A stretch of DNA of 24,000 nucleotides. Source: Thiogranum sp. GTDB lineage: Bacteria > Pseudomonadota > Gammaproteobacteria > DSM-19610. The notes beneath the pieces were generated by a model. It ran no database searches. It had not been told where the DNA came from and saw only the letters and a list, made by a program, of their open reading frames with translations. Below are positions 1-21,472 of this stretch, one piece after another (position 1 is the first letter of the stretch; each line of letters begins with the position of its first letter). Location of the stretch: contig JASBSS010000030.1 in NCBI GenBank assembly GCA_030148805.1, positions 18,258 to 42,257 of the forward strand, read 5' to 3'. Both the position numbers and the translations under genes were made by a program.

Positions 1-912
1 GTCGATTTCCTGCGAGCTATCAATACCGGAAAAAGTATCCAGTTACCCAATAAAGTCGCAATTATCGGCGGTGGTAATACCGCGATTGACGCAGCCCGTT
101 GTGCGCGCCGTTTAGGTGCTGAGGTCACGGTCATTTGTCCGCAAGAACCTCACGGCACACAGCCCGGGCATCCTGGCGCAGAAATACCTGCGTCGCTGGA
201 AGAGGTGTTGCAGGCTGAAGCCGAAGGTGTGCGCTTAGTTTACCGTGCTGGCATAAAACGCCTGGTCCGCAGTGGCGAGCACTTGTCGGGTTTGGAAATC
301 GCACGTGTTGACCGCTTGCATAACCTGCAGGGTGATTTTAAGCCAGTTTTATTTGAAGGCACTGAAGAATTTTTACCCGCAGGCTTTGCCATCTTCGCAA
401 TCGGTCAGGAAGTTAACTGGAAAGGCCTGGAAGCAGTGATAGAAAAACCCGCTAACAATATTACCGTTGGCGGCGACGCAGCCGGGAAACCGCGCTTTGC
501 CGCGACTGCCGTCGGCAGCGGGTTTCAGGGGGCGATGATTACAATCGCCAGCCTGACCGGTACACCCCCCGTGTATGAACAACATGAAAAAGCAGAAATC
601 ACGGTGAAGCAACTCCATCTTCCTTATTATCCCGCGGTCATAAGAAATGAATCCGCAATTTTAGAACGTTGGAAAGATAACGTTGAGCTTGTAACCGGTT
701 TCAACGAAGAGGTGACTCTGAATGAAGCGCAGCGTTGCCTGAGTTGTGGCGTTTGTTTTCAATGTGATAATTGCTGGCATTTTTGTCCTGATGCGGCGGT
801 CATAAAAAACGATACAGGTTATGAAATTGATTATGACTATTGCAAAGGTTGTGGTATCTGCGCACAAGAATGCCCCAGTGGGCACATCAATATGGAGATT
901 GTAACTACCTGA
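1..912 (+). CDS. GltD-like NAD(P)H-dependent flavin oxidoreductase with C-terminal 2x[4Fe-4S] ferredoxin domain (5' partial, continues upstream of window)
   Basis: Frame 1 is open from nt 1; the track start at 205 is an internal GTG. Translation from nt 1 gives VAIIGGGNTAIDAARCARRLGA, the dinucleotide-binding GxGxxA fold typical of the glutamate synthase small-subunit family. The C-terminus carries two cluster motifs, CLSCGVCFQCDNCWHFCP and CKGCGICAQECP. Codon usage is visibly AT-rich, unlike the rest of the window. Confidence 0.75.
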   Translation, partial: VDFLRAINTGKSIQLPNKVAIIGGGNTAIDAARCARRLGAEVTVICPQEPHGTQPGHPGAEIPASLEEVLQAEAEGVRLVYRAGIKRLVRSGEHLSGLEIARVDRLHNLQGDFKPVLFEGTEEFLPAGFAIFAIGQEVNWKGLEAVIEKPANNITVGGDAAGKPRFAATAVGSGFQGAMITIASLTGTPPVYEQHEKAEITVKQLHLPYYPAVIRNESAILERWKDNVELVTGFNEEVTLNEAQRCLSCGVCFQCDNCWHFCPDAAVIKNDTGYEIDYDYCKGCGICAQECPSGHINMEIVTT

Positions 913-1033
913 CACAGTGAAGGACTGAACGGAAACATGACAAGTTAAATTGAGGGATTTGAGCATGGGTAAAATTACCGACGTAAAGCAATTTGCCTAA
1001 GATGCAAAATTGTTATCTTGTAGATGATATTGA

Positions 1034-1330
1034 CTTACCACGCTTGGCGGTAAGCGGGGCGCGAAGATGCTGGCCGGGGCGGACAGTGTGAAGATTCACG
1101 GCGGGTGGATTCCGGTCAAAGCCAGGGTCGAGGTGATCCACGGGCTGTCGGGTCACGCCGGCTATGTGGAGCTGCAGCATTGGCTGGAGCGCTCGCGGCT
1201 AAGGAAAGACACGGCCATCAAACTGGTGCACGGTGAGCCGGACGATTTGGACGCCATGCGCGATCACCTGCAGCGCATCACTCACTACAACGTCGAGGTG
1301 GCCGGTTATCAAAGTATCCTGAAGGTGTAG
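1034..1330 (+). pseudogene. 5'-truncated remnant of a beta-CASP / MBL-fold metallo-hydrolase (only the C-terminal RNA-specificity region is left)
   Basis: The frame opens just after TGA at 1031-1033; the first ATG is at 1067. The translation ...SVKIHGGWIPVKARVEVIHGLSGHAGYVELQHWLERS...VHGEPD matches the extreme C-terminus of ~450-aa beta-CASP MBL hydrolases (consensus v.i.G..v.V.a.v..l.g.SaHAD..eL..wl...vfLvHGE). About 350 N-terminal residues, including the HxHxDH metal site, are absent. The truncation point coincides with the GC-content switch. Confidence 0.6.
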
Positions 1331-1341
1331 TACTCAACGCA

Positions 1342-2601
1342 ATGAACAACGGAGGCGGCATTTATTTGAAACATGACGACCACATTCTGGTATTCAACAG
1401 CGGCAGTTCCTCGCTGAAGTTTCAATTAGGTGCGGACATGCCGGACAGTACGTTGCGGGGCGTGGTGCGCGACCTTGGCGATGAAGCAGTCTGTGAGTGG
1501 ATCTATCACGGCCAACGGGAACGCGTTTCGGTTACCGCAAACGATCACGGCAGCGCCGCCCGATATGTCCTCACACTGCTGAACCAGATCACCGATGCGG
1601 GCGGCTCACTCCTCGATACGGTTACCGCGATCGGGCATCGCATCGTCCATGGCGGCGAAAGCTTTTTCGAACCAACGCTACTTACGAACAAAGCGTTGGC
1701 GGCGCTCGATGCCATGAGCCCTCTCGCGCCGCTGCACAATCCACCGGCGCTTGCGGTGATACGTGCGTGCCAGGAAGAACGCCCGGACCTTCCCCAGGTC
1801 GGCGTATTCGATACGGCGTTCTTCCACGCATTGCCTGATTACGTCCGCGCCTACGCGCTGCCCGCTGAATGGACAGAACAATCACAACCGATCCGGCGTT
1901 ACGGTTTCCACGGACTGGCACACCGCTGCATGGTCGAACGGTTTGCCACCATCCACGCTGCAAACGACACCTCGACCCGGGTCATCACGCTGCAACTGGG
2001 CCACGGCTGCTCGGTCGCCGCCATACGCAACGGGGAAGCGATCGAGACCAGCATGGGCTTCACACCGCTGGAAGGATTGATCATGGCCACCCGCCCGGGT
2101 GATCTTGATGCCGGGGTTCTATTGCATCTGCTGGAACGGGGTGTCGTCAGCATCACGGAGCTGAATGATGCTCTGAATCACCGATCCGGTTTGCTGGGCC
2201 TGTCCGGCGTCAGTGGCAATATGCAGGAATTGTTGGAACTGGAAGCACAAGGCCATGCCGGTGCGCACCTGGCTGTTGAGGCGTTTTGCCATCGCGCACG
2301 CAAGTACCTCGGCGCCTACCTGGCCGTGCTCGGCGGCGCCGACGCGATTGCCTTTGGCGGCGGCATTGGCGAGCACGCAGCCGCCATCCGAGCGCGTATC
2401 TGCGCCGGGATGGCGTGGTGCGGACTGCAACTGGATGAACATTCCAATCACTCAGTCGAGGGAGCAGAGGCATGCATTAGCGCGGCGGATGCCGCTATCG
2501 CGGCCTACGTGATTCCGGTCGACGAGGAATTACTCATTGCACGGGATACCGTGAATTGTCTGAGCACGACTCATGCCCAAGACAGTCGTTATTCCAATTG
2601 A
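1342..2601 (+). CDS. ackA: acetate kinase
   Basis: 419 aa with an ATG start. Hallmark motifs are present: [75 protein letters not shown] and FGGGIGEH. Confidence 0.92.
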
Positions 2602-2618
2602 ACATGGAGGAAAAAACC

Positions 2619-5033
2619 ATGGATAAAAAAAATCAGAACGCACAGCCCGAGACCCACAACGGGCCAGGCACGCTGGAGGCGGACGAATTGCGCAACATGG
2701 ATGCCTACTGGCGGGCGGCGAATTACCTGTCGGTGGGGCAGATCTATCTGTTGGATAATCCGCTGCTCACCGAGCCGCTGACACTGGCGCATGTCAAGCA
2801 GCGACTGCTCGGGCACTGGGGCACCACCCCAGGTTTGAATTTCATCTACGTGCACCTGAACCGCGTGATCAGGGCACAGGATCTCAATGTGATCTATGTG
2901 GCCGGTCCCGGCCACGGCGGCCCGGGGCTGGTCGCCAACACCTGGCTGGAAGGCAGTTACAGTGAGTTTTACCCGAATATTTCGCAGAATGTTGCCGGCA
3001 TGCAACGGTTGTTCAAGCAGTTTTCCTTTCCGGGTGGAATACCGAGCCACGTGGCACCGGAGACGCCGGGTTCCATCCATGAGGGCGGCGAGCTTGGCTA
3101 CGCCCTGTCACATGCGTACGGCGCGGTGTTCGATAATCCTGACCTCATCGCCGCTTGTGTAGTGGGTGATGGCGAGGCCGAGACCGGGCCGCTCGCCACC
3201 GCCTGGCATTCCAACAAGTTTCTCAATCCGGCCAACGATGGTGCGGTACTGCCAATCCTGCACCTCAATGGCTACAAGATCGCCAATCCCACCGTGCTGG
3301 CGCGCATCCCGCGCGAGGAACTGGAGAGCCTGTTCATCGGTTATGGCTATCAGCCGTATTTCGTCGAGGGTGCCGATCCGGAAGATATGCATCAACTGAT
3401 GGCTGACACGATGGACAAGGCAATTGCCGATATCAGGGCGATCCAGCATGCGGCGCGCAACGAAGGCGCAACGCAGCGGCCACGCTGGCCGATGATCATC
3501 CTGAAAACGCCCAAGGGTTGGACCGGGCCAAAAGAAGTCGATGGCAAAAAGGCGGAAGGGTATTGGCGTTCTCACCAGGTCCCGTTTGCCGAACTGGCTG
3601 AGAAACCGGAGCACCTCAAACTGCTCGAGAAATGGATGCAGAGCTATCGCCCCGACGAGTTGTTCGATGAAAACGGTCGCCTGATGCCTGAACTGGCGGC
3701 GCTGGCGCCACAGGGCGAACGGCGTATGGGCGCCAATCCGCACGCCAACGGCGGGCTATTGCTTAAGGATCTGCAGCTGCCGGACTTCCGCGACTATGCC
3801 GTCAAGGTGACTGATCCCGGCGCTGGGCAGGCGGAATCGACGCGGGTCATGGGCGCCTACCTGCGTGACGTGATGAAGCGCAACCTGCCAACGCGGAACT
3901 TCCGCGTGATGGGTCCGGACGAGACCAACTCCAACCGCCTCGGTGCGCTGTTCGAGGTGACCGATCGAGCCTGGCTGGCTGAGACCCTTCCGGAGGACGA
4001 TCACCTGGCACCCGACGGGCGCGTGATGGAGATCCTCTCCGAACACACCTGCCAGGGCTGGCTGGAAGGCTACTTGCTCACCGGCCGACACGGCCTGTTT
4101 TCCTGCTACGAGGCCTTCATCCACATCATCGATTCCATGTTCAACCAGCACGCCAAGTGGCTGAAGGTGACCAACGACGAAATCCCCTGGCGCCGGCCGA
4201 TCGCCTCGCTAAATTACCTGCTGACTTCGCATGTCTGGCGCCAGGATCACAACGGCTTCTCGCACCAGGACCCCGGCTTTATCGATCACGTGGTCAATAA
4301 AAAGGCGGATGTCATAAGGGTATATTTACCGCCCGATGCGAATACGCTGCTGTGTGTCACTGACTGTTGCCTGCGCTCGCGCAATTTCGTCAATGTGATT
4401 GTGGCCGGTAAACAGATGCAGCCGCAGTGGCTTGATATGGAAGCGGCCATCAAGCACTGCACAGCCGGTATCGGTATCTGGGAGTGGGCCAGCAACGACC
4501 AGGGCGGTGAGCCGGACGTGGTGATGGCCTGTGCCGGTGATGTGCCAACCCTGGAGACGCTGGCGGCGGTGGATATCCTGCGCCGCCATCTGCCCGACCT
4601 CAAGGTGCGGGTGATCAACGTGGTGGATCTCATGACCTTGCAGGACCAGGCAGAGCACCCCCACGGCCTCTCGCACAAGGACTTCGATACGCTGTTCACA
4701 ACCGACAAACCGATCATCTTCGCCTATCACGGTTATCCCTGGTTGATCCATCGCCTGACCTATCGGCGCACCAATCACAGAAACCTGCACGTGCGCGGTT
4801 ACAAGGAAGAGGGCACCACCACTACGCCGTTCGACATGGTGGTACGAAACGACATGGACCGGTTTGACCTGGTGGCGGACGTCATCGATCGCGTGCCACA
4901 TCTGGGATCGCGGGCGGCCTATCTCAAGCAATGGCTGCGCTATAAACATATTGAGCACCGGCAATACATCACCGAGCATGGGATAGACATGCCGGAGGTG
5001 ACAGAGTGGCAATGGGATACAACTACGAACTGA
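2619..5033 (+). CDS. xfp: xylulose-5-phosphate/fructose-6-phosphate phosphoketolase
   Basis: About 804 aa. Motifs: [42 protein letters not shown] (TPP site), [24 protein letters not shown] and [18 protein letters not shown] chose the ATG at 2619 because GGAGGA at 2606-2611 precedes it by 7 nt. The track start at 2556 is a TTG inside ackA. Confidence 0.93.
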
Positions 5034-5043
5034 GGAGAGCCTT

Positions 5044-5220
5044 ATGGAATGGTTAGCGGAAAATTGGTTCTGGGTGCTTATCGGCATCCTGTTTGTGGCT
5101 ATGCACATGTTCGGCCATGGTGGGCACGGGGGGCATGGCGGAACTGGTGGGCACGGCGGACATGGCAACTCGGCTAAACCGGATGACGGGCCGGACAGGC
5201 CATCAGGACATCAACACTGA
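5044..5220 (+). CDS. DUF2933-like small membrane protein with a His/Gly-rich tail (58 aa; below the ORF-track size cut-off)
   Basis: Hand translation gives MEWLAENWFWVLIGILFVAMHMFGHGGHGGHGGTGGHGGHGNSAKPDDGPDRPSGHQH*. GGAGAG at 5034-5039 lies 4 nt upstream of the ATG. One N-terminal TM helix followed by a (HGG)n tail is the architecture I associate with DUF2933 proteins of metal-resistance loci. Confidence 0.6.
   Translation: MEWLAENWFWVLIGILFVAMHMFGHGGHGGHGGTGGHGGHGNSAKPDDGPDRPSGHQH
5116..5166 (+). repeat. in-frame 9-nt tandem repeat (CAY GGN GGN) encoding HGGHGGHGGTGGHGGHG
   Basis: Read directly from the sequence: cat ggt ggg cac ggg ggg cat ggc gga act ggt ggg cac ggc gga cat ggc. The antisense reading produces the spurious MPCPPCPPVPPCPPCPP start of track ORF 4326..5168(-). 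Confidence 0.7.
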
Positions 5221-5233
5221 CGGAGGGCAAAAC

Positions 5234-5491
5234 ATGCTTAATACGAAACTGGTCAGTTGGGCACTGGGGCTCTTTGCGGGGGTCACCTTCATCGTGTGCG
5301 TGATCTATGGACTGGTGACGCCCCAAAGCCTGCATATGCACGAATTTCTCGAACAGATACTGCCGGCTTTTAAATGGCTTACCTGGTGGGGTTTCCTGCT
5401 TGGATTGATCGAGAGCTTTCTTTACGGCGTCTATGCCGGGCTGGTGTTCTGCCCGATCTACAACGCGCTTCACCGCCGCTTCGGCGCCTGA
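5234..5491 (+). CDS. small (85 aa) multi-pass membrane protein, possibly DUF5676-like
   Basis: ATG at 5234 is preceded by GGAGGG at 5222-5227. The product MLNTKLVSWALGLFAGVTFIVCVIYGLV...WLTWWGFLLGLIESFLYGVYAGLVFCPIYNAL has two clear hydrophobic segments. The track ORF 5093..5491 is the same frame with an implausible upstream extension overlapping the previous gene. The family assignment is from memory only. Confidence 0.5.
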   Translation: MLNTKLVSWALGLFAGVTFIVCVIYGLVTPQSLHMHEFLEQILPAFKWLTWWGFLLGLIESFLYGVYAGLVFCPIYNALHRRFGA

Positions 5492-5505
5492 CGAGGGAAC
5501 CGGCA

Positions 5506-6981
5506 ATGGAAAAACGCCAACAGTTCTCGATCTGGTATTTCATCGCCGTCTTCCTGTTGATCATGGCGGTACAGAACGACCTGTACGGCCGGCACACCGA
5601 AACCCTGTCTTACGACAACTTCAAGATCATGCTCAAGGCCGGAAAGCTGACTGACGTCGCAATCGGTGAGAGGACCCTGAGGGGCGGATTGATCAATGAA
5701 GGATTGGAGGAACTGCTGCCGAAGGAAAAGCTCAATGAACTGCGCAAATCCGGCGATGGACCGCACCGCTTCGTCACTGTGCGGGTAGACGATCCGGATC
5801 TGATCAAGGAGCTGGAAGCCGCCAAGGTGCGTTTCGCCGGCGTGATCGAGAGCAACTGGTTTCGCACGTTGCTGTCGTGGGTGCTGCCGGCGGTTGTTTT
5901 CGTCGGCATCTGGATGTTGCTGATGAAACGCATGGGTGCGGCGGGCGGTATGCTCGAGATCGGCAAGAGCAAGGCCAAGATCTATGTGGAGAAGGACACG
6001 CGGGCGTCTTTCAACGACGTCGCCGGCGTGGACAAGGCCAAGGAGGAACTGGAAGAAGTCGTCACCTTCCTGAAGGAACCCGGGCGCTTCGACCGTCAGG
6101 TGTTGGTGGACCGGCCCGACAAGATCGGCCGGATGCAAATCCTGCAGGTACATCTCAAGAAGGTCATGCTCGCGCCCGGCGTCGACGTGGAGCAGATCGT
6201 GGCGCTCACGCCCGGCTTCTCCGGCGCCGACCTCGCTAACCTGATCAACGAGGCGGCGCTGCTCGCCACTCGCCGAGGCGCCGAGGGCGTGGCGCTCGAC
6301 GATTTCACCCGTGCCGTCGAACGCATCGTCGCCGGTCTGGAGAAAAAGAACCGTCTGCTCAATCCCAAGGAACGCGAGGTGGTGGCGCATCACGAGATGG
6401 GGCATGCGCTGGTGGCCATGGCGCTGCCCGGCACGGACCCGGTACACAAGGTCTCCATCATCCCGCGCGGCATCGGCGCCCTGGGCTATACCATCCAGCG
6501 CCCGACCGAGGACCGCTTTCTCATGACCCGCGAGGAACTGGAAAACAAGATGGCGGTGCTGCTCGGCGGCCGGGCGGCTGAGCAAATTGTGTTCGGCCAT
6601 CTGTCCACCGGCGCCGCCGACGATCTCGCCAAGGCAACTGACATTGCGCGCAGCATGGTGATGCGGTACGGCATGGACGAGAAGCTCGGTCATGTGGCGC
6701 TGGAGTCCAGCCGCCCGGCGTTCCTGGACCTGCCCGGCGCCTTTCCGCCCGTGCGCGAATACAGCGAGGCGACTGCGCACGAGGTCGATTGCGCCGTGCG
6801 CGCCATCGTGCAGGCGGCGTTCGAGCGGGCTGTACAGTTGCTCACCGAGCGGCGCGACACACTCGACCGCGGCGCACGGCAGTTACTCGCCCAAGAGACA
6901 CTGAGCGGGGAGGACGTGCAGACCTTGCTGCAAGCACCGCTGCCTGCAGCAGCCGCCAAACCGGAAGGAGGATTCTCATGA
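5506..6981 (+). CDS. FtsH-family zinc metalloprotease paralog lacking the AAA+ ATPase core (in-frame internal deletion; possibly a pseudogene)
   Basis: ATG at 5506 follows GAGGGA at 5493-5498. The 491-aa product has TM1 FSIWYFIAVFLLIMAV, a periplasmic segment and TM2 LLSWVLPAVVFVGIWMLLM. It then reads FNDVAGVDKAKEELEEVVTFLKEPGRF|DRQVLVDRPDKIGRMQILQVH..TPGFSGADLANLINEAALLA (AAA lid), followed by HHEMGHALV (HExxH) and TGAADDLAKATDIARSMV (M41 peptidase). No GPPGTGKT, DExD or pore-loop FVG is present in any frame. Confidence 0.8.
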   Translation: MEKRQQFSIWYFIAVFLLIMAVQNDLYGRHTETLSYDNFKIMLKAGKLTDVAIGERTLRGGLINEGLEELLPKEKLNELRKSGDGPHRFVTVRVDDPDLIKELEAAKVRFAGVIESNWFRTLLSWVLPAVVFVGIWMLLMKRMGAAGGMLEIGKSKAKIYVEKDTRASFNDVAGVDKAKEELEEVVTFLKEPGRFDRQVLVDRPDKIGRMQILQVHLKKVMLAPGVDVEQIVALTPGFSGADLANLINEAALLATRRGAEGVALDDFTRAVERIVAGLEKKNRLLNPKEREVVAHHEMGHALVAMALPGTDPVHKVSIIPRGIGALGYTIQRPTEDRFLMTREELENKMAVLLGGRAAEQIVFGHLSTGAADDLAKATDIARSMVMRYGMDEKLGHVALESSRPAFLDLPGAFPPVREYSEATAHEVDCAVRAIVQAAFERAVQLLTERRDTLDRGARQLLAQETLSGEDVQTLLQAPLPAAAAKPEGGFS

Positions 6982-8039
6982 CCACAGCCGAACTGGAAAA
7001 GACCGTGCAGCAGCTGACCGCGCCGGGCAAGGGCATCCTTGCGGCGGACGAGAGCACTGGCACGATCGAGATGCGCTTCAAGGCCGTGAACGTGCCCTGC
7101 ACCGAGCAGACCCGGCGCGCCTACCGCGAGATGCTGTTCACCACGCCGGGACTGGGTGACTACATCAGCGGCGTGATTCTGTTCGAGGAAACGCTGAAGC
7201 AAACCAACGCCGCGGGAGTGGCGTTCCCGCAGCTGCTCACTGGGCAGGGCATCGTCCCCGGCATCAAGGTGGACAAAGGCACGGTGGCGCTGCCCGGGTT
7301 CCCCGGCGAGAAGGTGACCCAGGGTCTCGACGGGTTGGCGGAGCGGCTGGCCGAGTACAGGAAATCCGGCGCGCGCTTCGCCAAGTGGCGCGCGGTGCTC
7401 GCGATCGGCGCCGGCATGCCGAGCGCCGCGGGGATTGATGCGAACGCACACGCACTGGCGCGTTACGCGGCAATCTGCCAGGACCAGGACCTGGTGCCGA
7501 TCGTTGAACCGGAGGTGTTGATGGACGGCGACCATGATATCGCGACCTGTGCGCGCGTGACCGAGAATGTGTTGCATGCGGTGTTTCACGCACTGCATCG
7601 TCAGCGCGTCGCGCTGGAGTTCATGCTGCTCAAGCCGAACATGGTCATCGCGGGCAGCGCCTGCCCCAAACAGGCTACGCCCGAGGAAGTCGCGGCGGCG
7701 ACTCTGTCCCGCCTGCGGCGCACGGTGCCGCCGGCCGTGCCGGGTATCTACTTCCTCTCCGGTGGGCAGAGTGAGGCAGTTGCAACCACAAATCTCAATG
7801 CCATGAACGCCAGCGCGGTAAAACGACCATGGATTTTGAGTTTTTCATACGGGCGTGCCCTTCAGGCGCCAGCGCTCGACGCCTGGCGTGGTGAGGCCGC
7901 GAACCAGGTCGCGGCCCAGCAGGCGCTCGCCAAGCGGGCGCGCCTGAACGCGGCGGCGCGTGAAGGACGATATACCGCCGCCATGGAGCAGGGTCGCCGG
8001 GTTAACGTTGGAGATGAACCAGTAGGAGATAAATCATGA
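6978..8039 (+). CDS. fba: fructose-bisphosphate aldolase, class I (Schiff-base type)
   Basis: ATG at 6978 overlaps the ftsH-like stop (ATGA), with GGAGGA at 6966-6971. Motifs: [56 protein letters not shown] (catalytic Lys context) and FLSGGQS. The track start at 6789 lies inside the upstream gene. Confidence 0.88.
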
Positions 8040-10390
8040 AAACAAGCATAGTCGAGGTCGGAGGGCTATTGTCGACACTCAGTGCGCGCGGTGTGGAGAA
8101 GCAGCTTGCGAAGCTGCCGGGCGTGAAGAAGGTCGAGGTCAACTACGTGGCCGGCAGCGCCACCGTCACCTACGACGAAGCGGCGGTCGACCTCAAGGCG
8201 ATCAAGGCCCGCGTTCATGAGTGCGGTTACCACTGCCGCGGCGAACAGACACCGAAGCATGTGTGCGCAGCTGAGGATCCGCCAGCCGCGGTGGCCGTTG
8301 CCGAACATGAGCATGAAGGTCATGCAGTTCATGCCGGGCACGAGAAGGCCACCGAACGGGCCGGCGCCCGAGACGAGATGGCCCATGAAATGGGGCATGG
8401 CGGCGGCATGGACATGCAGGCCATGGTGCGCGACATGCGCAATCGTTTCTGGGTCTGTTTTATTTTTACCATTCCGATTTTCATCTATTCGCCCATGGGC
8501 GGGCTGTTCACGCCGCCGGCGCCGCCCTTCGGTCTGGATCTGAATGCCTGGCTGTTCCTGCTCGCCACCGTCGCGGTGATCTGGCCGAGCTGGCCGTTCT
8601 TCGTCGCTGCCTGGCGTGCGCTCAGAAACGGTGTGCTCAATATGGCGGTGCTGGTGGTGCTGTCGGTGGGCACCGGTTACCTGTTCAGTCTCGGTGCTAC
8701 CTTCCTGTTCGATGGCGTGCAGTTCTTCGAGGCAGTCGCGGTGTTGCTGGTGTTTATCCTGCTCGGACATTGGCTGGAGATGCGTGCCCGCGCCGGCGCC
8801 TCCGATGCTATCCGCTCGCTGATGGACCTTGCCCCGCCCAAGGCCGTGGTATTGCGCGACGGACAGGAGCTGGAGGTGCCGACGGCCGAGGTGTTGAAGG
8901 GCGACGTGGTAGTAATCCGCCCAGGCAACAAGATCCCGGTTGACGGCGAGGTGCTGGAGGGAGAGTCACAGGTAGACGAGTCCATGCTCACCGGCGAGTC
9001 CATGCCGGTAGCCAAGAAACCCGGCGATACAGTGATCGGAGCCACCATCAACAAGAGCGGCAGTTTCAAGTACCGCGCTACCAAGGTGGGTGCCGATACG
9101 GCGCTGGCGCAAATCGTCAAACTGGTGCAGGAGGCGCAGAACTCCAAGGCCCCGGCGCAACTGCTGGCGGACAAGGCTTCACAGTGGCTGGTGGTGATCG
9201 CCATCGTCATCGGTCTGCTTACCTTTGCGGTGTGGTTCTGGGGGCTCAGTGCGACATTACTATTCGCCGTGACCCTGACCATCACCGTGTTCGTCATCGC
9301 CTGCCCCGATGCCCTCGGACTCGCCACGCCCATGGCGGTGATGGTGGGTACCGGTCTCGGTGCCAAGAACGGCATCCTGTTCAAGAACGCCTCGGCGCTG
9401 GAGGATGCGACCAAGCTGGATGTAGTGGTGTTCGACAAGACCGGCACCCTGACCATGGGTGAGCCGCAGGTGGTGGAGGCCGTTGCCGCGGCGGACACCA
9501 GCCAGGATGCCGTGCTGGCGCTGGCCGCCACGGTGGAGCAGGGCTCGGATCATCCACTGGCACAGGCTATCCAGAAGCGGGCCGAGGGTTTGAAACTGGA
9601 ACCGCTCAGCGGCTTCGCCAATATCGAGGGCAAGGGAGCACGCGCCGAGGTGGGTGGCAAGAATGTGCTGCTCGGTAACCGCCGCCTGATGGACGAAGAA
9701 AAGATCGACATGGGGCGGTTAAAGGATGAGGCCGCGCGCCTGCAGGGCGCGGGCCAGACCGTGGTGCACGTTGCGCACGGTGGCAAGCTTACAGGATTGA
9801 TCGCAATCGCCGATGCGCCGCGGCCGACCGCGGCGGCCATGGTAAATAAGATGCGCGAGCGCGGTGTGGAGGTGGCCATGCTCACCGGCGACAATCAGGC
9901 CACCGCTGAACGCATCGCCGGGGAACTCGGCATCACCACCGTCATCGCCGACGTGTTGCCGGGGCAGAAGGCGGACAAGATCAAGGAACTGCAAGGGCAG
10001 GGCAAGAAGGTGGGCATGGTGGGCGACGGCGTCAACGACGCCCCAGCGCTGACCCAGGCCGAAGTGGGTTTTGCTATCGGTGCCGGCACCGACGTGGCCA
10101 TGGAATCGGCCGACGTGGTGCTGATGAAGAGCGATCCCTATGATGTTCTGGGCGCGATTGAATTATCACGCGCGACCCTGCGCAAGATGCACCAGAACCT
10201 GTTCTGGGCGGTGGCCTACAACGTCATCGCCTTTCCCGCAGCCGCCGGGGTGTTCTACCCGCTGGTGATCAGCCCCGAGGTGGCGGCGCTGGCTATGTCT
10301 GGCAGCTCGGCGCTGGTGGCGGTGAACGCGCTGCTGCTCAAACGCACCCGGCTGGAGGGCATTCGCCAGGTCAGGGCAAGCGGAACATGA
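8036..10390 (+). CDS. P1B-type heavy-metal (copper-like) translocating P-type ATPase with atypical CPD transmembrane motif
   Basis: 784 aa; ATG at 8036 overlaps the fba stop (ATGA), with AGGAGA at 8023-8028. Core motifs: [24 protein letters not shown] and [12 protein letters not shown] signatures are YNVIAFP and P-x6-MSGSS. The TM4 motif reads [12 protein letters not shown] (codons 9302-9310) instead of CPC or CPH. The N-terminal HMA-like fold has STLS (8072-8083) where CxxC is expected. A His/Met-rich linker follows: [15 protein letters not shown]...[14 protein letters not shown]. Confidence 0.88.
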
Positions 10391-11550
10391 AGGGCGAGGT
10401 GTTCTGGCGCTCGCCACAGGTAGCGGGTCTGGTGACGGTGGCGGCCATGCTGCTGGCCTTCGTGCTGGTCAATTCCCCTGCAGAGAGTTGGTACGGGCAG
10501 GTGCATCACCTGACCTTGCTGGTCCAGGTGGGCGAATTCAGCATCAACAAGCCAATGATCCTGTGGATCAACGACGGCTTGATGGTGTTTTTCTTCTTGC
10601 TCATCGCCCTGGAGCTCAAGCGCGAGGTGCTGGAAGGCGAGCTGTCTTCGCTCAAGTCCCTCGCCGCGCCGGGTTTTGCTGCGCTGGGTGGCATGCTGGC
10701 ACCGGCACTTATCTATGCCTCACTGAACACCGGCGATTCGCTGGCCATGCGTGGCTGGGCGATCCCCGTCGCCACCGACGCCGTACTGGCATTGACCGTG
10801 CTGATTCTGCTCGGCAGCCGGGTACCTGCCTCGCTCAAGGTGTTTCTGACGGCCCTGGCGATCTTCGACGACCTGGGCGCGATCCTGGTCATCGCGCTGT
10901 TCTATACCGAAGGGCTCGCCACGTCCTCGCTGCTGCTGGCGGGCCTCGGAATTGCGGTGCTGGTGCTGTTTAATTATTACAAGGTCACGCAGGTTGCGGC
11001 CTACGTCATCGTCGGTGTGTTCCTGTGGCTTGCCGTGCTCAAGTCCGGCGTGCACGCGACCATCGCCGGTGTTGCCATCGGCCTGGCGATCCCGATGCAG
11101 GTCAGCCGGGATGGGAAATCCTGGTCGCCGATAAAAGAGACGGAACACGCGCTGTATCCCTGGGTCGCGCTGGGGGTCGTGCCGGTGTTCGCCTTTTTCA
11201 ACGCCGGCATCCCCCTGTCTGTCGCGGTGCTCGACACGCTGGCCTCGCCGATCTCGGTTGGCATTATGCTGGGGTTGTTTGTCGGCAAACAAATTGGTGT
11301 GTTCGGCGCGACCTGGCTGGCCGTGCGCCTTGGCCTGGCGCAGCTGCCCCACGCCGCCGGCTGGTGGCACATTTATGGCGTGGCGATGATCGCCGGGATC
11401 GGCTTCACTATGAGCCTGTTCATCGCCGGACTGGCGTTCTCCGATCCGGAAACCTTCCGCAGTGCGCGGCTGAGCGTGGTGGTCGGTTCGGTAATTTCCG
11501 CCTTTGTCGGTGCCGCCGTGTTGTGGTGGGCTGGGCGCGGACGCCGCTGA
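10387..11550 (+). CDS. nhaA: Na+/H+ antiporter NhaA
   Basis: 387 aa; ATG at 10387 overlaps the ATPase stop (ATGA). Motifs: [32 protein letters not shown], and [16 protein letters not shown] containing the paired Asp equivalent to E. coli D163/D164. Confidence 0.9.
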
Positions 11551-11590
11551 CGGCCGGTTAACAGTTTGTTATCTAAAGGAGGTCAAGGTT

Positions 11591-12151
11591 ATGAAAACTG
11601 TCATCGTCACCCTGGGTATTATCGTCACGCTGGCGATTTCCACGGCGCTTGCCGTGATGTATACGGGGTTGTTCAATGTGGCCACGGACTGGAAAGACCC
11701 GGCCTGGCTCAGGTGGGTGCTGGTCACGACCCGGGAGAGTTCAATCGAGCGCCGCGCGCAGGCGTTGCAGGCGCCGGCCGAACTCGGTGACCCGCAGCGT
11801 ATCGCACGCGGCTTTGGCGCCTTTCGCGATATGTGCGCCATCTGTCATACCCTGCCCGGTGACGATCCGACACCACTAACACGCGGGCTCAATCCAGCGC
11901 CACCAGACCTTGCGAAAGGGGAAGGGCATATGTCGGAAACGGAGGTATTCTGGGTGATCAAGAACGGTATTCGCATGACCGGCATGCCGGCCTGGCATCC
12001 GTCACACAGCGAAGGGGAACTGTGGGATATCGTTGCCTTTATCAAGGTGTTGCCGGACATGCGTGTCGAAGAGATCGACTTGTTGAAACAACGCTATCCA
12101 ACGCCTTCGGGACAAGGTGCCGAACCCGCGCACGCACCTTCGCCGCATTGA
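11591..12151 (+). CDS. membrane-anchored monoheme c-type cytochrome
   Basis: ATG at 11591 follows AAGGAGG at 11577-11583. There is an N-terminal TM anchor (VIVTLGIIVTLAISTALAV) and a single CAICH heme-binding site. Downstream, GIRMTGMPAW is a plausible Met ligand region. The track ORF 11504..12151 is the same frame extended into the nhaA 3' end. Confidence 0.75.
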   Translation: MKTVIVTLGIIVTLAISTALAVMYTGLFNVATDWKDPAWLRWVLVTTRESSIERRAQALQAPAELGDPQRIARGFGAFRDMCAICHTLPGDDPTPLTRGLNPAPPDLAKGEGHMSETEVFWVIKNGIRMTGMPAWHPSHSEGELWDIVAFIKVLPDMRVEEIDLLKQRYPTPSGQGAEPAHAPSPH

Positions 12152-12236
12152 GTGCTTGGATCGTGAGGTATAAAAGCAGAGCAAGCGTTTGGATCGAGTC
12201 CGTAGTAGGGCAAACGAATCTAGACGCGAGGGTGCA

Positions 12237-13469
12237 GTGAGCGTGCGGCGACACGACGGGCTGGCGACTTTACCGTTCTTTTTGCTCATGGCGGCGGTGT
12301 TTGCCGTGTATGTGGGTTACGGCATCGTGCTGCCGGTGCTGCCGTTCCTGCTGGAATCGCTGCTGGGCGCTAGTGCACGTTTTTCGGTTGCCTGGCACAC
12401 CGGCATGATCGCGGCGATCTACATGTTCGCGCTGTTCGTGGGCGCGCCGCTGTGGGGAAAAGTCTCCGACCGTATCGGACGCCGGCCGGTAATCCTGCTG
12501 GGCTTAGGTGGTTGCGTCCTGGCGCTGGCGACCTTCGGCCTGGCGGCGAATCTTTGGGTGGCCTACCTGGCTCGCGCTCTCGCGGGGGGGCTGGTCTCCG
12601 CTGTCTTGCCCGTGGCCCTGGCCTATATCAGTGATACCAGCGCACCGGAGGCGCGAGCGCGTCGCTTCGCCTGGATGACCGCGGCCACCACGCTTGGGTT
12701 TATGGCAGGACCGTTACTGGGTGGCTGGCTCGCTGGGATGCCGGCCGGTATATGGGGGCAGGCGGGAGGTGGCGGTTCGTTGTCGGCAGGGTTTTTCACC
12801 GCCGCCGCCGGTGGCGCCGTGATCTGGCTGGCGGTTTGGCGCAGGCTGCCAGGGATCCCGCCGCCGGTAAACACAGCGGCGCATACGCAGTGTCTGCCGG
12901 ATGAACGAAATACAAAGTCGGTGAATGTGCTGCTGTTGCTGGCGCTGCTTGGCATGTTCGGTCTGGGCGCTTTCGAAGTTGCGATTGCCCTGCAGGGCCA
13001 GCAGGTGTTGGGGCTCGATCCGTTGCAGATCGGGCTGATATTCATGGAATGCAGCCTGGTCATGGTCGCGGTGCAGGTGCTGGTGTTCTCGCCATTGGTG
13101 CGGCGCACTGGATTTCGCTTTATCGTCGCGCCCGCCTTTCTGGCGATGGCGGTGGGGGTAGGGCTGTTGCCTCTGGTGAGCGATCCAGGCTGGATTATGC
13201 TGTTGGTCGGGTTGTTCGCCGCCGGATCGGGCATCCTGATTCCGATGCTGGCCTACCGCGTGTCCCTGGATGCCGGACCGGCCCAGGGCGCGGCGCTGGG
13301 CAAGCAGACTGCGGCCGCCGCCCTGGGACAGGGCCTTGGTTCGGCTGCGGCCGGCTGGTTGTATGGCATTACCATCGATGCGCCGTTCTGGTTCACGGCG
13401 GCCTTATTATTGAGTGGGTTGCTGGTCAGCATGGTGATGCGACAGCGCGACCGGTTTACTCTCAACTAA
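12237..13469 (+). CDS. MFS transporter (drug/H+ antiporter-like)
   Basis: Twelve-TM-like hydrophobic pattern. MFS motif A is GKVSDRIGRRPVILLGL, between TM2 and TM3. The start is uncertain. GTG at 12237 lies 5 nt after GAGG at 12228-12231. The longest ORF starts at TTG 12189. Confidence 0.78.
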   Translation: MSVRRHDGLATLPFFLLMAAVFAVYVGYGIVLPVLPFLLESLLGASARFSVAWHTGMIAAIYMFALFVGAPLWGKVSDRIGRRPVILLGLGGCVLALATFGLAANLWVAYLARALAGGLVSAVLPVALAYISDTSAPEARARRFAWMTAATTLGFMAGPLLGGWLAGMPAGIWGQAGGGGSLSAGFFTAAAGGAVIWLAVWRRLPGIPPPVNTAAHTQCLPDERNTKSVNVLLLLALLGMFGLGAFEVAIALQGQQVLGLDPLQIGLIFMECSLVMVAVQVLVFSPLVRRTGFRFIVAPAFLAMAVGVGLLPLVSDPGWIMLLVGLFAAGSGILIPMLAYRVSLDAGPAQGAALGKQTAAAALGQGLGSAAAGWLYGITIDAPFWFTAALLLSGLLVSMVMRQRDRFTLN

Positions 13470-13525
13470 GTGTCTACGATGTTGCATTTATAGTAGTGGA
13501 ATGACCAAATCGAAAAACTGGATGC

Positions 13526-14713
13526 ATGATGGAGCAAGCTGTACTTACAAGTATCATTGGTCTTCTCGCCGCCTCTGTGGCGTTGCTGGCCGTGTTCGAA
13601 CGCATCGGGCTGCCGATTTTACTGGCTTATCTTTTGGTAGGGATCGTTCTGGGCCCGGCTGGTTTTTCCTGGATTCCTCATACCCAGACTCTACATTTTC
13701 TTGCCGAGTTCGGGGTAGTGCTGCTGCTATTCACCATCGGACTGGAATTCTCCCTTGGCAAGCTCTGGACGCTACGAAAACATGTGTTCGGACTCGGTGC
13801 GGCTCAGGTCCTGGTAACTGCCGTAATCGGCGCGCTGTTGGCCTGGGCGCTGGGACTTGCCCCGGGCGCGGCTTTTGTGGTGGGTGGGGCGCTGGCATTA
13901 TCCTCGACGGCGGTGGTATCGCGCGAACTCAGTCGCAGGGAGGAACTCGGACAGCCGCACGGTCGCCTGTCGATTGCGATCTTGATCTTTCAGGATCTGG
14001 CCGTGGTTCCCTTCCTGATCCTGATCCCCGTATTGGCGGGCGATTCGGAGAACGGTGTTTGGGCCGCAATCAGCCAGGCATTACTGGTCGGTGCCATTGT
14101 CATCGCGCTGATGATGGCGGCGGGCCGTTGGTTGTTGCGGCCGCTGTTTCGGCGCATTGCCGATCGGGGTTCTGAGGAGTTGTTCACGCTGACGGCACTG
14201 CTGTTTGCACTTGGGGCGGCATGGATCACCGAGTTCGCTGGGTTGTCGCTGGCCCTGGGGTCTTTTCTCGCCGGTGTGATGCTCAGCGAGACCGAGTACA
14301 GGCATCGCCTCAGAGATGAGATCCGTCCGTTTCGCGATGTACTCCTGGGGTTCTTTTTCGTGGTAATCGGCATGATGCTGGACCTGGACGCGGTGATGAC
14401 ACTGTTGCCGTGGGTACTGCTGGCGTTGACCCTGTTGCTGTTGGTGAAGACGGTGACCACCACCCTCCTCGGACGATTGTTCAGCGTGCCTCGCGGGGTG
14501 GCCATGCATACGGCGTTGCTGCTGTCCCAGGGCGGCGAGTTCGGATTGGTGCTGGTGTTGCTGGCAGCCAAAGAGGGTCTGCTCGGATCCTCTGTCGAGC
14601 AGCTGGTTCTGGGCACGATCATCCTGAGTATTGCGCTGACACCATTGCTGGTCGTTTGGGCGGGTCCGCTGTCACGCAAGGTCTGTTTTCGCGATATTGG
14701 GGTAGGCAATTGA
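13526..14713 (+). CDS. monovalent cation:proton antiporter, CPA2 (Kef-type) family, membrane domain only
   Basis: 395 aa. The N-terminus LLAYLLVGIVLGPAGFSWI...FLAEFGVVLLLFTIGLEFS and SIAILIFQDLAVVPFLILIP are typical Na_H_Exchanger/KefB-like signatures. I could not recognise a C-terminal KTN/TrkA-N Rossmann motif. Confidence 0.8.
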   Translation: MMEQAVLTSIIGLLAASVALLAVFERIGLPILLAYLLVGIVLGPAGFSWIPHTQTLHFLAEFGVVLLLFTIGLEFSLGKLWTLRKHVFGLGAAQVLVTAVIGALLAWALGLAPGAAFVVGGALALSSTAVVSRELSRREELGQPHGRLSIAILIFQDLAVVPFLILIPVLAGDSENGVWAAISQALLVGAIVIALMMAAGRWLLRPLFRRIADRGSEELFTLTALLFALGAAWITEFAGLSLALGSFLAGVMLSETEYRHRLRDEIRPFRDVLLGFFFVVIGMMLDLDAVMTLLPWVLLALTLLLLVKTVTTTLLGRLFSVPRGVAMHTALLLSQGGEFGLVLVLLAAKEGLLGSSVEQLVLGTIILSIALTPLLVVWAGPLSRKVCFRDIGVGN

Positions 14714-14752
14714 GTTTCATTACATGGCAAATAACCCAGGGAGGACACGACC

Positions 14753-15262
14753 ATGGGGCTTGGCCGTAAAAAGCTGAAAGACCCGGTGTGCAAGATGCTG
14801 GTGGCGCCGGATCAGCATGCGATCAACTATCAGGGCATGGATTTCGCCTTCTGCTCGCTGCAGTGCAAGGAGCGGTTTCTGGCCAACCCGCACCTGTATA
14901 TCGGCGTGCCGGGCGAGCAAGCGCCGAAACAGGCCGGGGAGGATATCATCAAGCGCCGTCGCCTGCGTCTCGATCAACCTTTGTCGGCGTCGGCGGTGCA
15001 GCAAGTCACCGAGCAACTCCAGGCCATGATGGGCGTGTACACGGTAGACATCGATGCGAACGAGCTGACCATCACCTACGACCTGCTGCAGGCGACGGCC
15101 GAGCAGATCGAGACGAGCCTGCAACATGCAGGCGCCCGTCTGGGCGATGGCTGGGGTGAGCGGCTACGACGGGCATTTGTCCACTATCTGGAAGAGAGCG
15201 AAGTGGCGAGCCGCGAGGTGCAGCCCGGCCCGCATGGGCACGGGGGCCATCACCATGGCTGA
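14753..15262 (+). CDS. YHS/TRASH-domain metal-binding protein with Cys-less HMA-like domain and His-rich tail
   Basis: ATG at 14753 follows GGGAGGA at 14739-14745. The YHS signature is DPVCKMLV...GMDFAFCSLQCKERFLANP. The middle region (RLRLDQPLSASAVQQVTEQLQAMMGVYTVDIDANELTITYD) looks like an HMA ferredoxin fold with SASA where CxxC is expected. The C-terminus is GPHGHGGHHHG. Confidence 0.7.
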   Translation: MGLGRKKLKDPVCKMLVAPDQHAINYQGMDFAFCSLQCKERFLANPHLYIGVPGEQAPKQAGEDIIKRRRLRLDQPLSASAVQQVTEQLQAMMGVYTVDIDANELTITYDLLQATAEQIETSLQHAGARLGDGWGERLRRAFVHYLEESEVASREVQPGPHGHGGHHHG

Positions 15263-15310
15263 TGGCGGTGGTGTAGAGGGCATGTTTTACGGGCCCTGGA
15301 TCGCAGGATC

Positions 15311-16495
15311 GTGACGCAACAGCCAGACAGCCGCATGCAAGGCTGTGCGTCCGGGCGCCCGCCAGTCTTGACGTCACAGATCGTACCGGCAATGAGCACG
15401 CCGCTGGCATCCATTTTCGGCAGTGGTTTTCTGGTCATCGTCCCCGTGTTGGCGAGCGCTGTAGGACCGTATGCGGTGTGGGCGATGCTGGCGGTGGCCT
15501 TTGTCGCGTTTCATACCGGTGCCATCGTGCGGCACAATATCCTCTGCGCCGAACCGGTGCTGGCGGCGGGCAACAGGCGCACGACGTTGTTACTGGAACG
15601 GCTGTCCGATGTGGCGCTGGTGGCGGCCTATGTTGTCTCCGTGTGCCTCTACATCCATATCCTCAGCGCTTTCGTGCTCGGTGCCTTCGAGCTGGATTCG
15701 GGTTTCAACAAGAGCCTGCTCACCACGCTGGTGATCGGATTGATTAGCGTCATCGGCATCCTGGGTGGACTGAAACCACTGGAACATCTGGAGCGCTGGG
15801 CGCTGTACGTCACCCTGTTGATCCTGGCACTGCTGCTGATCGGCTTTGCTGTTTACGACGCACGGCTTTATCTGAACACCGGCCAGTTCGCGCTGCCGGC
15901 ACTGCCGCAACGCTCCGGCTGGGAGATGCTGACCATCGTCGCCGGCACGCTGATCGTGGTGCAGGGTTTCGAGACCCCGCGCTATCTCGGCCACCGCTTC
16001 GACACCTTGACCCGCATCCGCGCCTCGCGCTGGTCACAATACATTTCCCTTGCAGTGTACGTCGCTTTCGTGGCCCTGGCGCTGCCCCTTGTGCCGTTGC
16101 TGAACGGAGAGTACGCCGACAACAGCCTCATTCGGCTGGCGGCGGCGGCTTCGGTGCTGCTATCGGTGCCGCTGGTTCTCGCCGCCGGCCTGTCGCAGTT
16201 CTCCGCCGCGGTGGCGGACACCTTAGCCGCCGCCGCGAACCTCGAAGAAGTTACGCAGCGGCGTTTCGCTGAGCGCTGGGGCTATCTGCTGGTAGGTGGC
16301 GCGGCCATGGTGCTGGCCTGGACGGGTTCGACTTTCACGGTGCTCGTGCTAGCATCCAAGGCCTTCGCCCTGTACTACCTGCTGCAATGCCTGGTGGGCC
16401 TGACGGTGTGCCGCAACCACCGTGAGCGGGTGCGTTTTTTTCTGGTAGCGTTGGCGTTGGGGTTTGTGCTGTTGTTTGCCGTACCGGCGGGGTAG
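15311..16495 (+). CDS. polytopic inner-membrane protein of unknown function
   Basis: The long ORF has at least 9 hydrophobic segments and no motif I can assign. The start is ambiguous among GTG 15311, ATG 15335 and ATG 15392, none with a convincing Shine-Dalgarno sequence. Confidence 0.55.
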   Translation: MTQQPDSRMQGCASGRPPVLTSQIVPAMSTPLASIFGSGFLVIVPVLASAVGPYAVWAMLAVAFVAFHTGAIVRHNILCAEPVLAAGNRRTTLLLERLSDVALVAAYVVSVCLYIHILSAFVLGAFELDSGFNKSLLTTLVIGLISVIGILGGLKPLEHLERWALYVTLLILALLLIGFAVYDARLYLNTGQFALPALPQRSGWEMLTIVAGTLIVVQGFETPRYLGHRFDTLTRIRASRWSQYISLAVYVAFVALALPLVPLLNGEYADNSLIRLAAAASVLLSVPLVLAAGLSQFSAAVADTLAAAANLEEVTQRRFAERWGYLLVGGAAMVLAWTGSTFTVLVLASKAFALYYLLQCLVGLTVCRNHRERVRFFLVALALGFVLLFAVPAG

Positions 16496-16505
16496 GGAGA
16501 AGGAT

Positions 16506-17168: not shown

Positions 17169-17215
17169 TTATGGTGGCGCCATAAGAGGGTTATGTCGAA
17201 GGCTTAAGCCCGGCA

Positions 17216-19642: not shown

Positions 19643-19737
19643 CAGCGCTATGTTAACAGAAGCGGCTTCCGGGCGAAGAGAAGGTATCCCGATATGGCGC
19701 GGTGAGTTAGTGAGCCGGTGCCGGATACGATTTTCGG

Positions 19738-21458: not shown

Positions 21459-21472
21459 TTGATCCAGGTCAA
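21459..21472. promoter_or_regulatory. candidate FNR/Anr/FixK-type (CRP-family) binding box TTGATCCAGGTCAA
   Basis: Read directly from the sequence. It fits TTGA-N6-TCAA perfectly and TTGAT-N4-ATCAA with one mismatch. It lies in the divergent intergenic region, 87 nt upstream of the ATG at 21559 and 132 nt from the ubiB-like ATG at 21327. Confidence 0.4.

Follow-up and report, generated by a model that had tools for sequence, protein, structure and literature searches.

A P1B-type ATPase with a CPD transmembrane motif in a Thiogranum gene cluster

The window, a stretch of 24,000 nucleotides from a contig of Thiogranum sp. (assembly GCA_030148805.1, JASBSS010000030.1, positions 18,258 to 42,257 of the forward strand), carries a gene for a heavy-metal ATPase of the P1B type in which the CPx motif of the fourth transmembrane segment (TM4) reads Cys-Pro-Asp (CPD). 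The gene is intact, and from its sequence it is predicted to encode a functional pump that exports metal. The encoded ATPase is a real member of a catalogued but uncharacterised CPD subtype.

The pump gene and its conserved motifs

The ATPase was compared with two sets of relatives. The closest-protein set held the 120 best matches among 5.8 billion proteins (81-99% identity), and the genome set, for which one genome per species was scanned, gave 313 loci, the best 80 of which (74-89% identity) were used for the conservation counts. The features of the gene are as follows.

8036..10390, plus strand: gene for the P1B-type (heavy-metal) P-type ATPase, CPD subtype, 784 amino acids (open reading frame, Pfam, NCBIfam, structure alignment)
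8051..8233, plus strand: HMA (ferredoxin-like) domain of the N-terminus, residues 6-66, lacking the CxxC cysteines (Pfam HMA, 5.9e-14)
8072..8083, plus strand: S13-T-L-S16 (tcg aca ctc agt) where the GMTCxxC metal site would lie, aligned to C-A-M-C of the AfCopA HMA
8222..8266, plus strand: conserved cluster of Cys and His (C63-G-Y-H66-C67-x-G-x5-H75-x-C77) where the HMA fold ends, which may serve as a replacement metal site or as a sensor site
8297..8425, plus strand: linker rich in His and Met (residues 88-130), in which HEMGHG (117-122) and M125/M130 are invariant, directly before helix MA
8585..8590, plus strand: P184-S185 in helix MB, at the G129-G130 kink of LpCopA (3rfu alignment; P184 in 80/80 loci, S185 in 66/80)
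8642..8644, plus strand: M203, equivalent of the entry-site methionine (LpCopA M148, AfCopA M158; alignment, 80/80 loci; role from PMC9433437)
8990..9001, plus strand: TGES, dephosphorylation motif of the A domain, residues 319-322 (sequence; 80/80 loci)
9302..9310, plus strand: C423-P424-D425 (tgc ccc gat), TM4 CPx motif with Asp in third place, aligned to the CPC of CopA structures
9434..9454, plus strand: DKTGTLT, residues 467-473, with D467 as the phosphorylated aspartate (sequence; D467 in 80/80 loci)
9551..9556, plus strand: H506-P507, N-domain HP dipeptide typical of P1B pumps (sequence; 80/80 loci)
10022..10045, plus strand: GDGVNDAP, hinge motif of the P domain, residues 663-670 (sequence; columns invariant or nearly so in a 43-sequence alignment)
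10217..10237, plus strand: TM5 Y728-N729-(x)4-P734, AYNVIAFP (sequence; Y and N in 80/80 loci)
10295..10327, plus strand: TM6 M754-S-G-S-S758-(x)5-N764 (sequence; MSGSS in 120/120 homologs, M754 in 80/80 loci, N764 in 79/80)

The open reading frame (ORF) begins with ATG, and a GGAG stands 7 nucleotides 5' of the start. Pfam recognised an HMA domain at residues 6-66 (52.6 bits, cutoff 24.8), E1-E2_ATPase at 265-445 and Hydrolase at 462-675, and the protein scored 630 bits with the general heavy-metal model TIGR01525 (cutoff 346), 615 bits with the copper-translocating model TIGR01511 (cutoff 397) and 315 bits with TIGR01494 (cutoff 62). DKTGT, TGES and GDGxNDxP together with a HAD-like P domain place it in the P-type ATPase superfamily, and eight transmembrane segments, an xPx in M4 and the HP dipeptide in the N domain place it in the P1B subfamily. 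The eight hydrophobic segments lie at the positions of helices MA, MB and M1-M6, and the core aligns nearly end to end, at E ~1e-160, with AfCopA (3j09, 7r0g) and LpCopA (3rfu), the best solved structures. The initial annotation, which was made from the sequence alone, had described a complete P1B ATPase with canonical P-type motifs, copper-type signatures in TM5 and TM6 and a CPD in place of CPC or CPH. All motifs were recovered; YN(x)4P stands at residues 728-734, TM6 reads P747-x6-MSGSS (754-758), and tgc ccc gat lies exactly at 9302-9310.

In the alignment, C423-P424-D425 superposes on the CPC of AfCopA (3j09) and LpCopA (3rfu). The annotation had asked whether CPD is conserved in the orthologous clade or private to this gene, and had named close orthologs with CPC or CPH throughout as the outcome that would speak against its reading. 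It was found that all 120 closest proteins carry CPD together with MSGSS and a Cys-less CxxC position, and that CPD is also present in all 80 species-representative genome loci, where it is written in 13 codon combinations with the Asp codon evenly divided between GAT (40) and GAC (40). Synonymous divergence (dS) from the window gene ranged from ~0.9 to saturated, nonsynonymous divergence (dN) was 0.07-0.18, and dN/dS was ~0.1. Since CPD is universal in the clade and its codons vary, and since dS is near saturation with low dN, the Asp is kept by purifying selection and is no sequencing error. The same dS and dN values indicate that the high protein identity within the clade reflects constraint and not a very recent spread.

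The residues of the Cu+ pathway known from CopA have their equivalents in M203, E248, D379, C423, Y728, N729, M754 and S757, each of which is present in 80/80 loci; E232 is found in 79/80 and S758 in 78/80, with Thr in the remaining two. In its transmembrane site the protein departs from the characterised copper pumps at residue 425 and in the TM6 variant MSGSS, and nowhere else. In AfCopA the equivalent of D425 is C382, which forms the entry site with M158 and C380, gives an anomalous copper signal and is needed for Cu+ binding (PMC9433437). As this Cys is a Cu+ ligand, Asp425 must alter the chemistry of the site to some degree. Outside the site, P184 stands in place of the first glycine of the double-glycine kink in helix MB, which is a feature new here.

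The N-terminal domain is a recognisable HMA fold. An AlphaFold2 model built from 43 close homologs had a mean predicted local distance difference test score (pLDDT) of 53 and a predicted template modelling score (pTM) of 0.29, and only its HMA domain was usable; there, residues 1-60 reached a pLDDT of 67-88 and showed the expected order of strand-helix-strand-strand-helix. STLS had been read from the sequence at the GMTCxxC position (8072-8083), and this is exact, as it aligns to the CAMC of AfCopA. Across the 80-locus set, position 13 was Ser in 64 loci, Glu in 10, Thr in 2 and Asn in 1, and position 16 was Ser in 64, Asp in 12 and Thr in 1; neither was ever Cys. A subclade (10-12/80 loci) carries Glu and Asp at the former CxxC positions 13 and 16.

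The CxxC cysteines are absent, as first noted, but the N-terminal domain is not free of candidate ligands: C63, H66, C67, H75 and C77 are conserved at nearly 100%. The residues of this CGYHCxGx5HxC cluster show 99-100% conservation across 121 close homologs; of the genome loci, 77 cover this part of the protein, and 75-77 of them have the residues, which are also retained in P0123 at 54% identity. The cluster at the end of the Cys-less HMA is new here and a candidate metal site. A CopB-like His/Met stretch had likewise been proposed (~8297-8426); it is present at residues 88-130, and both the phylogeny and ten residues shared with CopB-type pumps, given below, agree with it. The His-rich N-termini of CopB representatives finish in the same M..DhrRRF context as the linker of the ATPase.

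Lineage and distribution of the CPD pumps

A search of 1.84 billion cluster representatives gave a handful of CPD clusters, followed by a drop to 41-48% identity where nearly all pumps were CPC. A neighbour-joining tree was built from 13 CPD, 4 CPH and 40 CPC representatives, and its bootstraps were run with the CPx columns removed. The split of CPD plus CPH from CPC was recovered in 100/100 bootstraps; the core CPD group received 100, CPH 99, and monophyly of all CPD only 1. The CPD pumps are therefore either a grade or the sister of the CopB-type pumps, with the branching order inside this CPD/CPH lineage limited by the four CPH sequences in the tree. Ten positions are fixed in CPD and CPH pumps and rare in CPC pumps, including H245/M249 (GHWxEM, TM2), L385/A389/G393 (TM3) and A732 (TM5).

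Set against the established P1B classes, the ATPase combines traits of two. It has the P1B-1 signatures YN(x)4P in TM5 and M(x)2SS(x)5[N/S] in TM6, but carries CPD where P1B-1 has CPC and does not group with the CPC pumps. With P1B-3 (CopB) it shares a His-rich N-terminus and the lineage of the CPH pumps, but it has neither CPH nor the TM6 signature MSxST(x)5N, for which it shows MSGSS; MSAST was seen in TM6 only in the distant CPD member P0125. P1B-2 is disfavoured by TM5 YN and TM6 MSGSS instead of the TM5 Lys and TM6 DxG, and the ZntA equivalog models scored far under their cutoffs (NF033775, 336 bits against 1240; NF008262, 371 against 1005). P1B-4 pumps have SPC and HEGxT instead of CPD and MSGSS, and the sCoaT structure 7qbz matched with 287 bits against 543 for CopA.

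Previously, a phylogeny of Rhizobiales copper ATPases (2017) named a 'novel CPD motif' as group VIc / P1B-3a, with members in Xanthobacter autotrophicus Py2, Nitrobacter hamburgensis X14 and Bradyrhizobium sp. (PMC5552934). That subtype was described by CPD, YN(x)4P, MSGSS and an N-terminus longer than that of CopB with few histidines, and the ATPase shows all of these. The plasmid genes of the same organisms match it at 66% identity (Nitrobacter plasmid 2), 67% (Bradyrhizobium BTAi1) and 77.5% over 83% of the query (Xanthobacter Py2). Whereas the earlier work covered three sequences from one order and no function, the clade is here large, crosses classes and is often more than 75% identical; neither the Cys/His cluster nor Pro184 in the MB kink nor the island setting, all seen here, had been reported there. 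We found no CPD enzyme with a defined substrate or functional data in the open-access literature searched, in which this phylogeny was the only mention of a CPD P-type ATPase. The initial annotation had called the CPD variant rare and uncharacterised, and had reckoned with a CPD clade whose substrate was already defined. The first of these words no longer holds for a large conserved clade of 313 loci; the second does, as no defined substrate turned up.

According to the passage of PMC7558416 that cites Purohit 2018, Cu(I) transport was later demonstrated for P1B-3 (CopB) pumps, and the class was merged into P1B-1. Like the CPH pumps CopB of A. fulgidus, E. hirae and S. thermophilus, the ATPase belongs to a lineage apart from CPC, has GHWxEM and eight further positions as well as YN(x)4P, and carries a His/Met-rich segment directly before MA. 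Unlike CopB, it has Asp for His in the CPx motif, MSGSS for MSxST and an added Cys-less HMA with the Cys/His cluster, and CopB representatives have the GG of YGGWPF where the ATPase has Pro184. With CopA (CPC; LpCopA 3rfu, AfCopA 3j09/7r0g) it has in common the TM5/TM6 signatures and the entry and exit residues M148, E189, E205 and D337 (LpCopA numbering), but identity is 41-48%, Asp replaces the second Cys of CPC, the HMA lacks CxxC and the tree places the protein apart from the CPC group.

The CPD clade comprises 313 genome matches and at least 27 plasmids (at least 60% identity) across Alpha-, Beta- and Gammaproteobacteria. Hosts include Marinobacter, Thiobacillus, Ca. Tenderia, Woeseiaceae, roseobacters, sphingomonads, Methyloceanibacter and metagenome-assembled genomes assigned to several other phyla, and the plasmids include Nitrobacter hamburgensis plasmid 2 and those of Xanthobacter Py2, Bradyrhizobium BTAi1, Cupriavidus, Ralstonia, Methylophaga and Paracoccus. 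Distant members are found in Chloroflexota and Actinomycetota; distant CPD pumps (47-53% identity) occur in Roseiflexaceae and Ca. Aquicultor. Marinobacter manganoxydans MnI7-9 has three copies of a CPD pump on three contigs (L030, L038, L043), at 81-85% identity to the window protein.

Gene cluster and neighbourhoods of related pumps

The other genes of the cluster in the window are:

1342-2601, plus strand: acetate kinase
to 5033, plus strand: phosphoketolase
within 5093-5491, plus strand: DUF5676 protein
5374-6981, plus strand: FtsH-like protein
6978..8039, plus strand: class I fructose-bisphosphate aldolase (Pfam Glycolytic, 6.8e-147), its stop overlapping the ATPase start (ATGA)
10387..11550, plus strand: NhaA Na+/H+ antiporter (Pfam Na_H_antiport_1, 8.3e-135), its start overlapping the ATPase stop (ATGA)
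11504-12151, plus strand: cytochrome c
12189-13469, plus strand: MFS transporter
13526-14713, plus strand: Na+/H+ exchanger
14753-15262, plus strand: soluble YHS protein of 169 amino acids (Pfam YHS, 1.7e-11; HMA, 3.3e-4, under cutoff)
15311-16495, plus strand: unknown protein
16464-17168, plus strand: DUF998 protein

ATGA stop/start overlaps at 6978-6981, 8036-8039 and 10387-10390 join the FtsH-like gene, the aldolase, the ATPase and NhaA, which suggests translational coupling of metabolically unrelated genes. The FtsH paralog keeps its transmembrane/periplasmic part, the AAA lid and the M41 protease (HEMGH) and has no Walker A or B; reading ...FLKEPGRFDRQVLVDRPD..., it has lost the entire AAA+ core in frame. 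The same AAA-less form is found in a 99%-identical contig (L006), and a Tenderia homolog of 634 amino acids has the AAA domain. At 17216-21327 the minus strand encodes a fatty acid cis/trans isomerase (857 amino acids, Pfam CTI, 1.6e-271) as well as an ABC1 atypical kinase; both genes run towards the end of the plus-strand cluster, and ABC1 and CTI genes recur near CPD pumps at other loci. A scan of 800-17400 for sigma-70 promoters and terminators gave nothing informative, and tRNA and Rfam scans for island borders or riboswitches found nothing. No FNR/Anr box that would point to a low-oxygen regulon lies near the cluster; a single site with one mismatch was found at 21459, far from the operon, and was equalled in 30 of 100 shuffles.

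Neighbours were counted within 10 kb of the pump at the 80 loci. The most frequent were CFA synthase (39/80), an ICMT/PEMT-like methyltransferase (31/80), DUF5676 (28/80), an ECF sigma factor (19/80) and glycogen phosphorylase (16/80), followed by ABC1 kinase (14/80), a second P1B pump (14/80 by direct count), phosphoketolase and PPK2 (12/80 each), an FtsH-like protein (11/80) and NhaA (8/80). Of the 73 loci with sufficient flanking sequence, 7 have NhaA directly 3' of the pump, as do contigs of Tenderia and Thiobacillus, and the aldolase was near the pump in 2/80 loci. An apparent YHS or ATPase neighbour in 43/80 loci was discarded as an artefact of single-linkage clustering that mixed unrelated proteins. 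No fixed operon partner that would reveal the substrate was found across the 80 loci. Neighbours of Cu/Ag type do occur at some of them: CusF-CusA-CusB(HMBD) at L090, FixH with an RND pump on Nitrobacter plasmid 2, and MerR with a CxxC HMA protein beside the CPD pump of a Methylophaga plasmid.

The pump is a recurrent part of a mosaic, often plasmid-borne island, a context that is new here, and the co-directional cluster of the window resembles such islands. They bring together genes for glycogen and sugar catabolism and for the formation of ATP at substrate level with others for ion transport, membrane remodelling and proteolysis and for proteins with YHS/HMBD metal domains. In ~14 loci (L022, L086, L087, L088 and ~10 others), including those of roseobacters and Marinobacter, an arginine deiminase cluster of a DcuC-family carrier, arginine deiminase, ornithine carbamoyltransferase and carbamate kinase lies 0.1-4 kb 3' of the pump. 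The arginine deiminase pathway is a second pump-linked module for substrate-level ATP, besides phosphoketolase with acetate kinase. By gene families the CPD islands overlap the low-oxygen-activated (lxa) locus of Burkholderia cenocepacia, with acetate kinase, a metal-dependent beta-CASP RNase, LOG/'lysine decarboxylase', cytochrome c and a cation-transporting ATPase in common (PMC3721108); the lxa paper likens its ATPase BCAM0318 to an ATPase of the DosR regulon (PMC3721108). In contrast to lxa, genes for universal stress proteins are missing from the window, and its cluster has no Anr box nearby.

Several further observations concern individual groups of loci. An ECF-sigma-like GTAAC-N16-CGTC motif stands 76-163 nucleotides 5' of the pump start in 14/79 loci (L046-L058, L078-L088, L043), with ~0.01 expected per 260-nucleotide window; its spacers differ between groups, an ECF sigma gene is near the pump in 15-19 loci, and the motif is absent from the Thiogranum window. 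In two Marinobacter loci (L028 6616-6972, L030 9559-9822) the ORF just 5' of the pump ends in KDVKQLSCCAG, like the C-terminus of mercuric reductase, and its sequence suggests a truncated mer region beside the pump in both. Contigs of Ca. Tenderia electrophaga (L001-L003) and the contig L005 encode fusions of YHS or HMBD with unrelated enzymes (YHS-LOG/'lysine decarboxylase', HMBD-epimerase, HMBD-VKOR; one of 1089 amino acids), and in the same contigs (L001-L003 / L005) a beta-CASP RNase gene stands directly 5' of the pump.

Probable substrate and mechanism

We lean, by a modest measure, towards a functional P1B metal exporter of the CPD subtype, sister to or a grade of the CopB lineage, with Cu(I) and Ag(I) as the most likely substrates. 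We infer this from the soft ligands and pathway residues that are kept, from nearest relatives that are copper pumps and from CPH sisters that carry Cu(I) without a thiol at the position in question. In a Post-Albers cycle, a thiophilic cation would enter from the cytoplasm past M203 and be occluded between TM4 (C423, D425), TM5 (Y728, N729) and TM6 (M754, S757/S758), whereupon D467 would be phosphorylated; the ion would leave to the periplasm past E232, and TGES would catalyse dephosphorylation. Asp425, in place of the CopB histidine, may serve as a harder or ionisable ligand or as a residue that handles charge or protons. The Cys-less HMA, the CGYHCxGx5HxC cluster and the HEMGHG/Met-rich linker probably form a regulatory or metal-delivery module, like the His-rich N-terminus of CopB. 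To go by the gene neighbourhood, the pump may protect from Cu(I), or keep metal balance, during survival limited by oxygen or energy. Copper is more toxic under anoxia, which would give such an island a simple reason to have its own pump.

Several findings weigh against export of Cu(I) and Ag(I). The Asp replaces the AfCopA Cu+ ligand C382 (PMC9433437), and a carboxylate is chemically unfavourable for Cu(I); the AlphaFold2 model, with its pLDDT of 53, is too poor for the geometry of the site. CueR, CopZ and other dedicated cop genes are absent from the window, and the neighbours over the 80 loci are mostly metabolic and stress genes, not copper genes. The second P1B pump encoded within 10 kb in 14/80 loci has, where its TM4 could be read, mostly CPC, which hints at a non-redundant role of the CPD pump.

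The initial annotation had expected a carboxylate in the transport site to change metal selectivity, but the CPH sister pumps now count as Cu(I) pumps (PMC7558416), and the other residues of the Cu pathway are invariant here. With the same fold and cycle, the Asp may retune the site to a borderline or harder divalent ion, such as Cu(II), Zn(II), Cd(II), Co(II), Fe(II) or Mn(II), and so define a separate selectivity class; we hold this to be unlikely, though a serious competitor. In its favour, the Asp is invariant despite saturating synonymous divergence and is thus selected in its own right, the equivalent Cys of AfCopA is a direct Cu+ ligand (PMC9433437), and a subclade has Glu and Asp at the HMA CxxC positions. 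The Cys3His2-type cluster and the His-rich linker would fit divalent ions, and the CPD gene often has that of a canonical CPC pump in its vicinity. In P1B-2 pumps a TM6 Asp serves for Zn(II), and in P1B-4 pumps His/Glu are used. However, the protein has neither the TM5 Lys and TM6 DxG of P1B-2 nor the SPC and HEGxT of P1B-4, the ZntA models stay far under cutoff (336 against 1240 and 371 against 1005 bits), the soft ligands C423, M754, M203 and M249 are invariant, and the closest relatives are copper pumps. An extended form of the proposal, to which we give only tentative weight, would make the whole CPD clade a distinct selectivity and regulatory class: the Asp would change the ion or add obligatory proton or charge handling, the HMA and cluster would form a new sensor domain, and the pump would have been carried across bacterial classes as an invariable member of plasmid-borne islands for survival, which gain their ATP without respiration from the breakdown of glycogen, from phosphoketolase and acetate kinase, and from arginine deiminase.

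Paralogs of Cu-ATPases with metallation roles are well known (PMC7558416), and the CPD pump might likewise be a low-turnover Cu(I) pump of the CopA2/CcoI kind that supplies copper to a periplasmic or membrane cuproprotein of the host instead of detoxifying it. A second canonical pump often co-occurs, and a c-type cytochrome gene lies two genes 3' of the ATPase. Cuproenzyme and assembly genes are however absent from the window and are no regular neighbours across the 80 loci, and in the tree the clade joins the CopB-type pumps, apart from CPC pumps of the FixI/CcoI type, which makes this role improbable.

It is more doubtful still that the P1B scaffold has moved to H+, Na+ or K+, so that fermentative ATP would keep ion gradients in anoxic or starved cells together with the coupled NhaA. 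In TM4, D425 falls where P2 pumps have the gating Glu of PEGL. The ATGA coupling to NhaA, its place directly 3' in 7 loci and in Tenderia and Thiobacillus contigs, and the repeated linkage with phosphoketolase and acetate kinase and with the arginine deiminase pathway would agree with such a role. The adjacency of NhaA is nevertheless limited to ~10% of loci, the Cys, the Met and the full Cu-type pathway are invariant, and we know of no precedent for transport of alkali cations or protons by a P1B pump. Nothing was found in favour of an Asp that is private and inactivating, or a sequencing error, in a copA/copB gene under decay; this reading is ruled out by CPD in 120/120 proteins and 80/80 loci, the equal use of GAT and GAC, the intact ORF with its invariant catalytic motifs and a dN/dS of ~0.1.

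The third CPx residue is one of the main keys for the substrate classes of P1B pumps, and here it is a carboxylate while the other residues of the copper pathway are fixed. A large, intact and strongly selected CPD clade is thus a clean natural test of the role of this position. If Cu(I) is still moved, CPx-based rules need to be loosened, as for CopB; if another ion is moved, a real function can be assigned to a common pump that is now mis-annotated ('Cu2+-exporting ATPase', 'heavy metal translocating'). The recurrent placement of the CPD pump on mobile islands with genes for fermentative ATP and stress would link metal handling to non-respiratory survival. Nothing in the analysis shows a new kind of system; the CPD pump is abundant and mis-annotated.

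The YHS protein of the cluster (14753-15262) has a weak HMA-like domain that is also without CxxC cysteines and ends in a C-terminal HGHGGHHHG, and homologs were found in 10/80 loci. It may assist the pump's Cys-less HMA as a partner in metal handling or as a chaperone.

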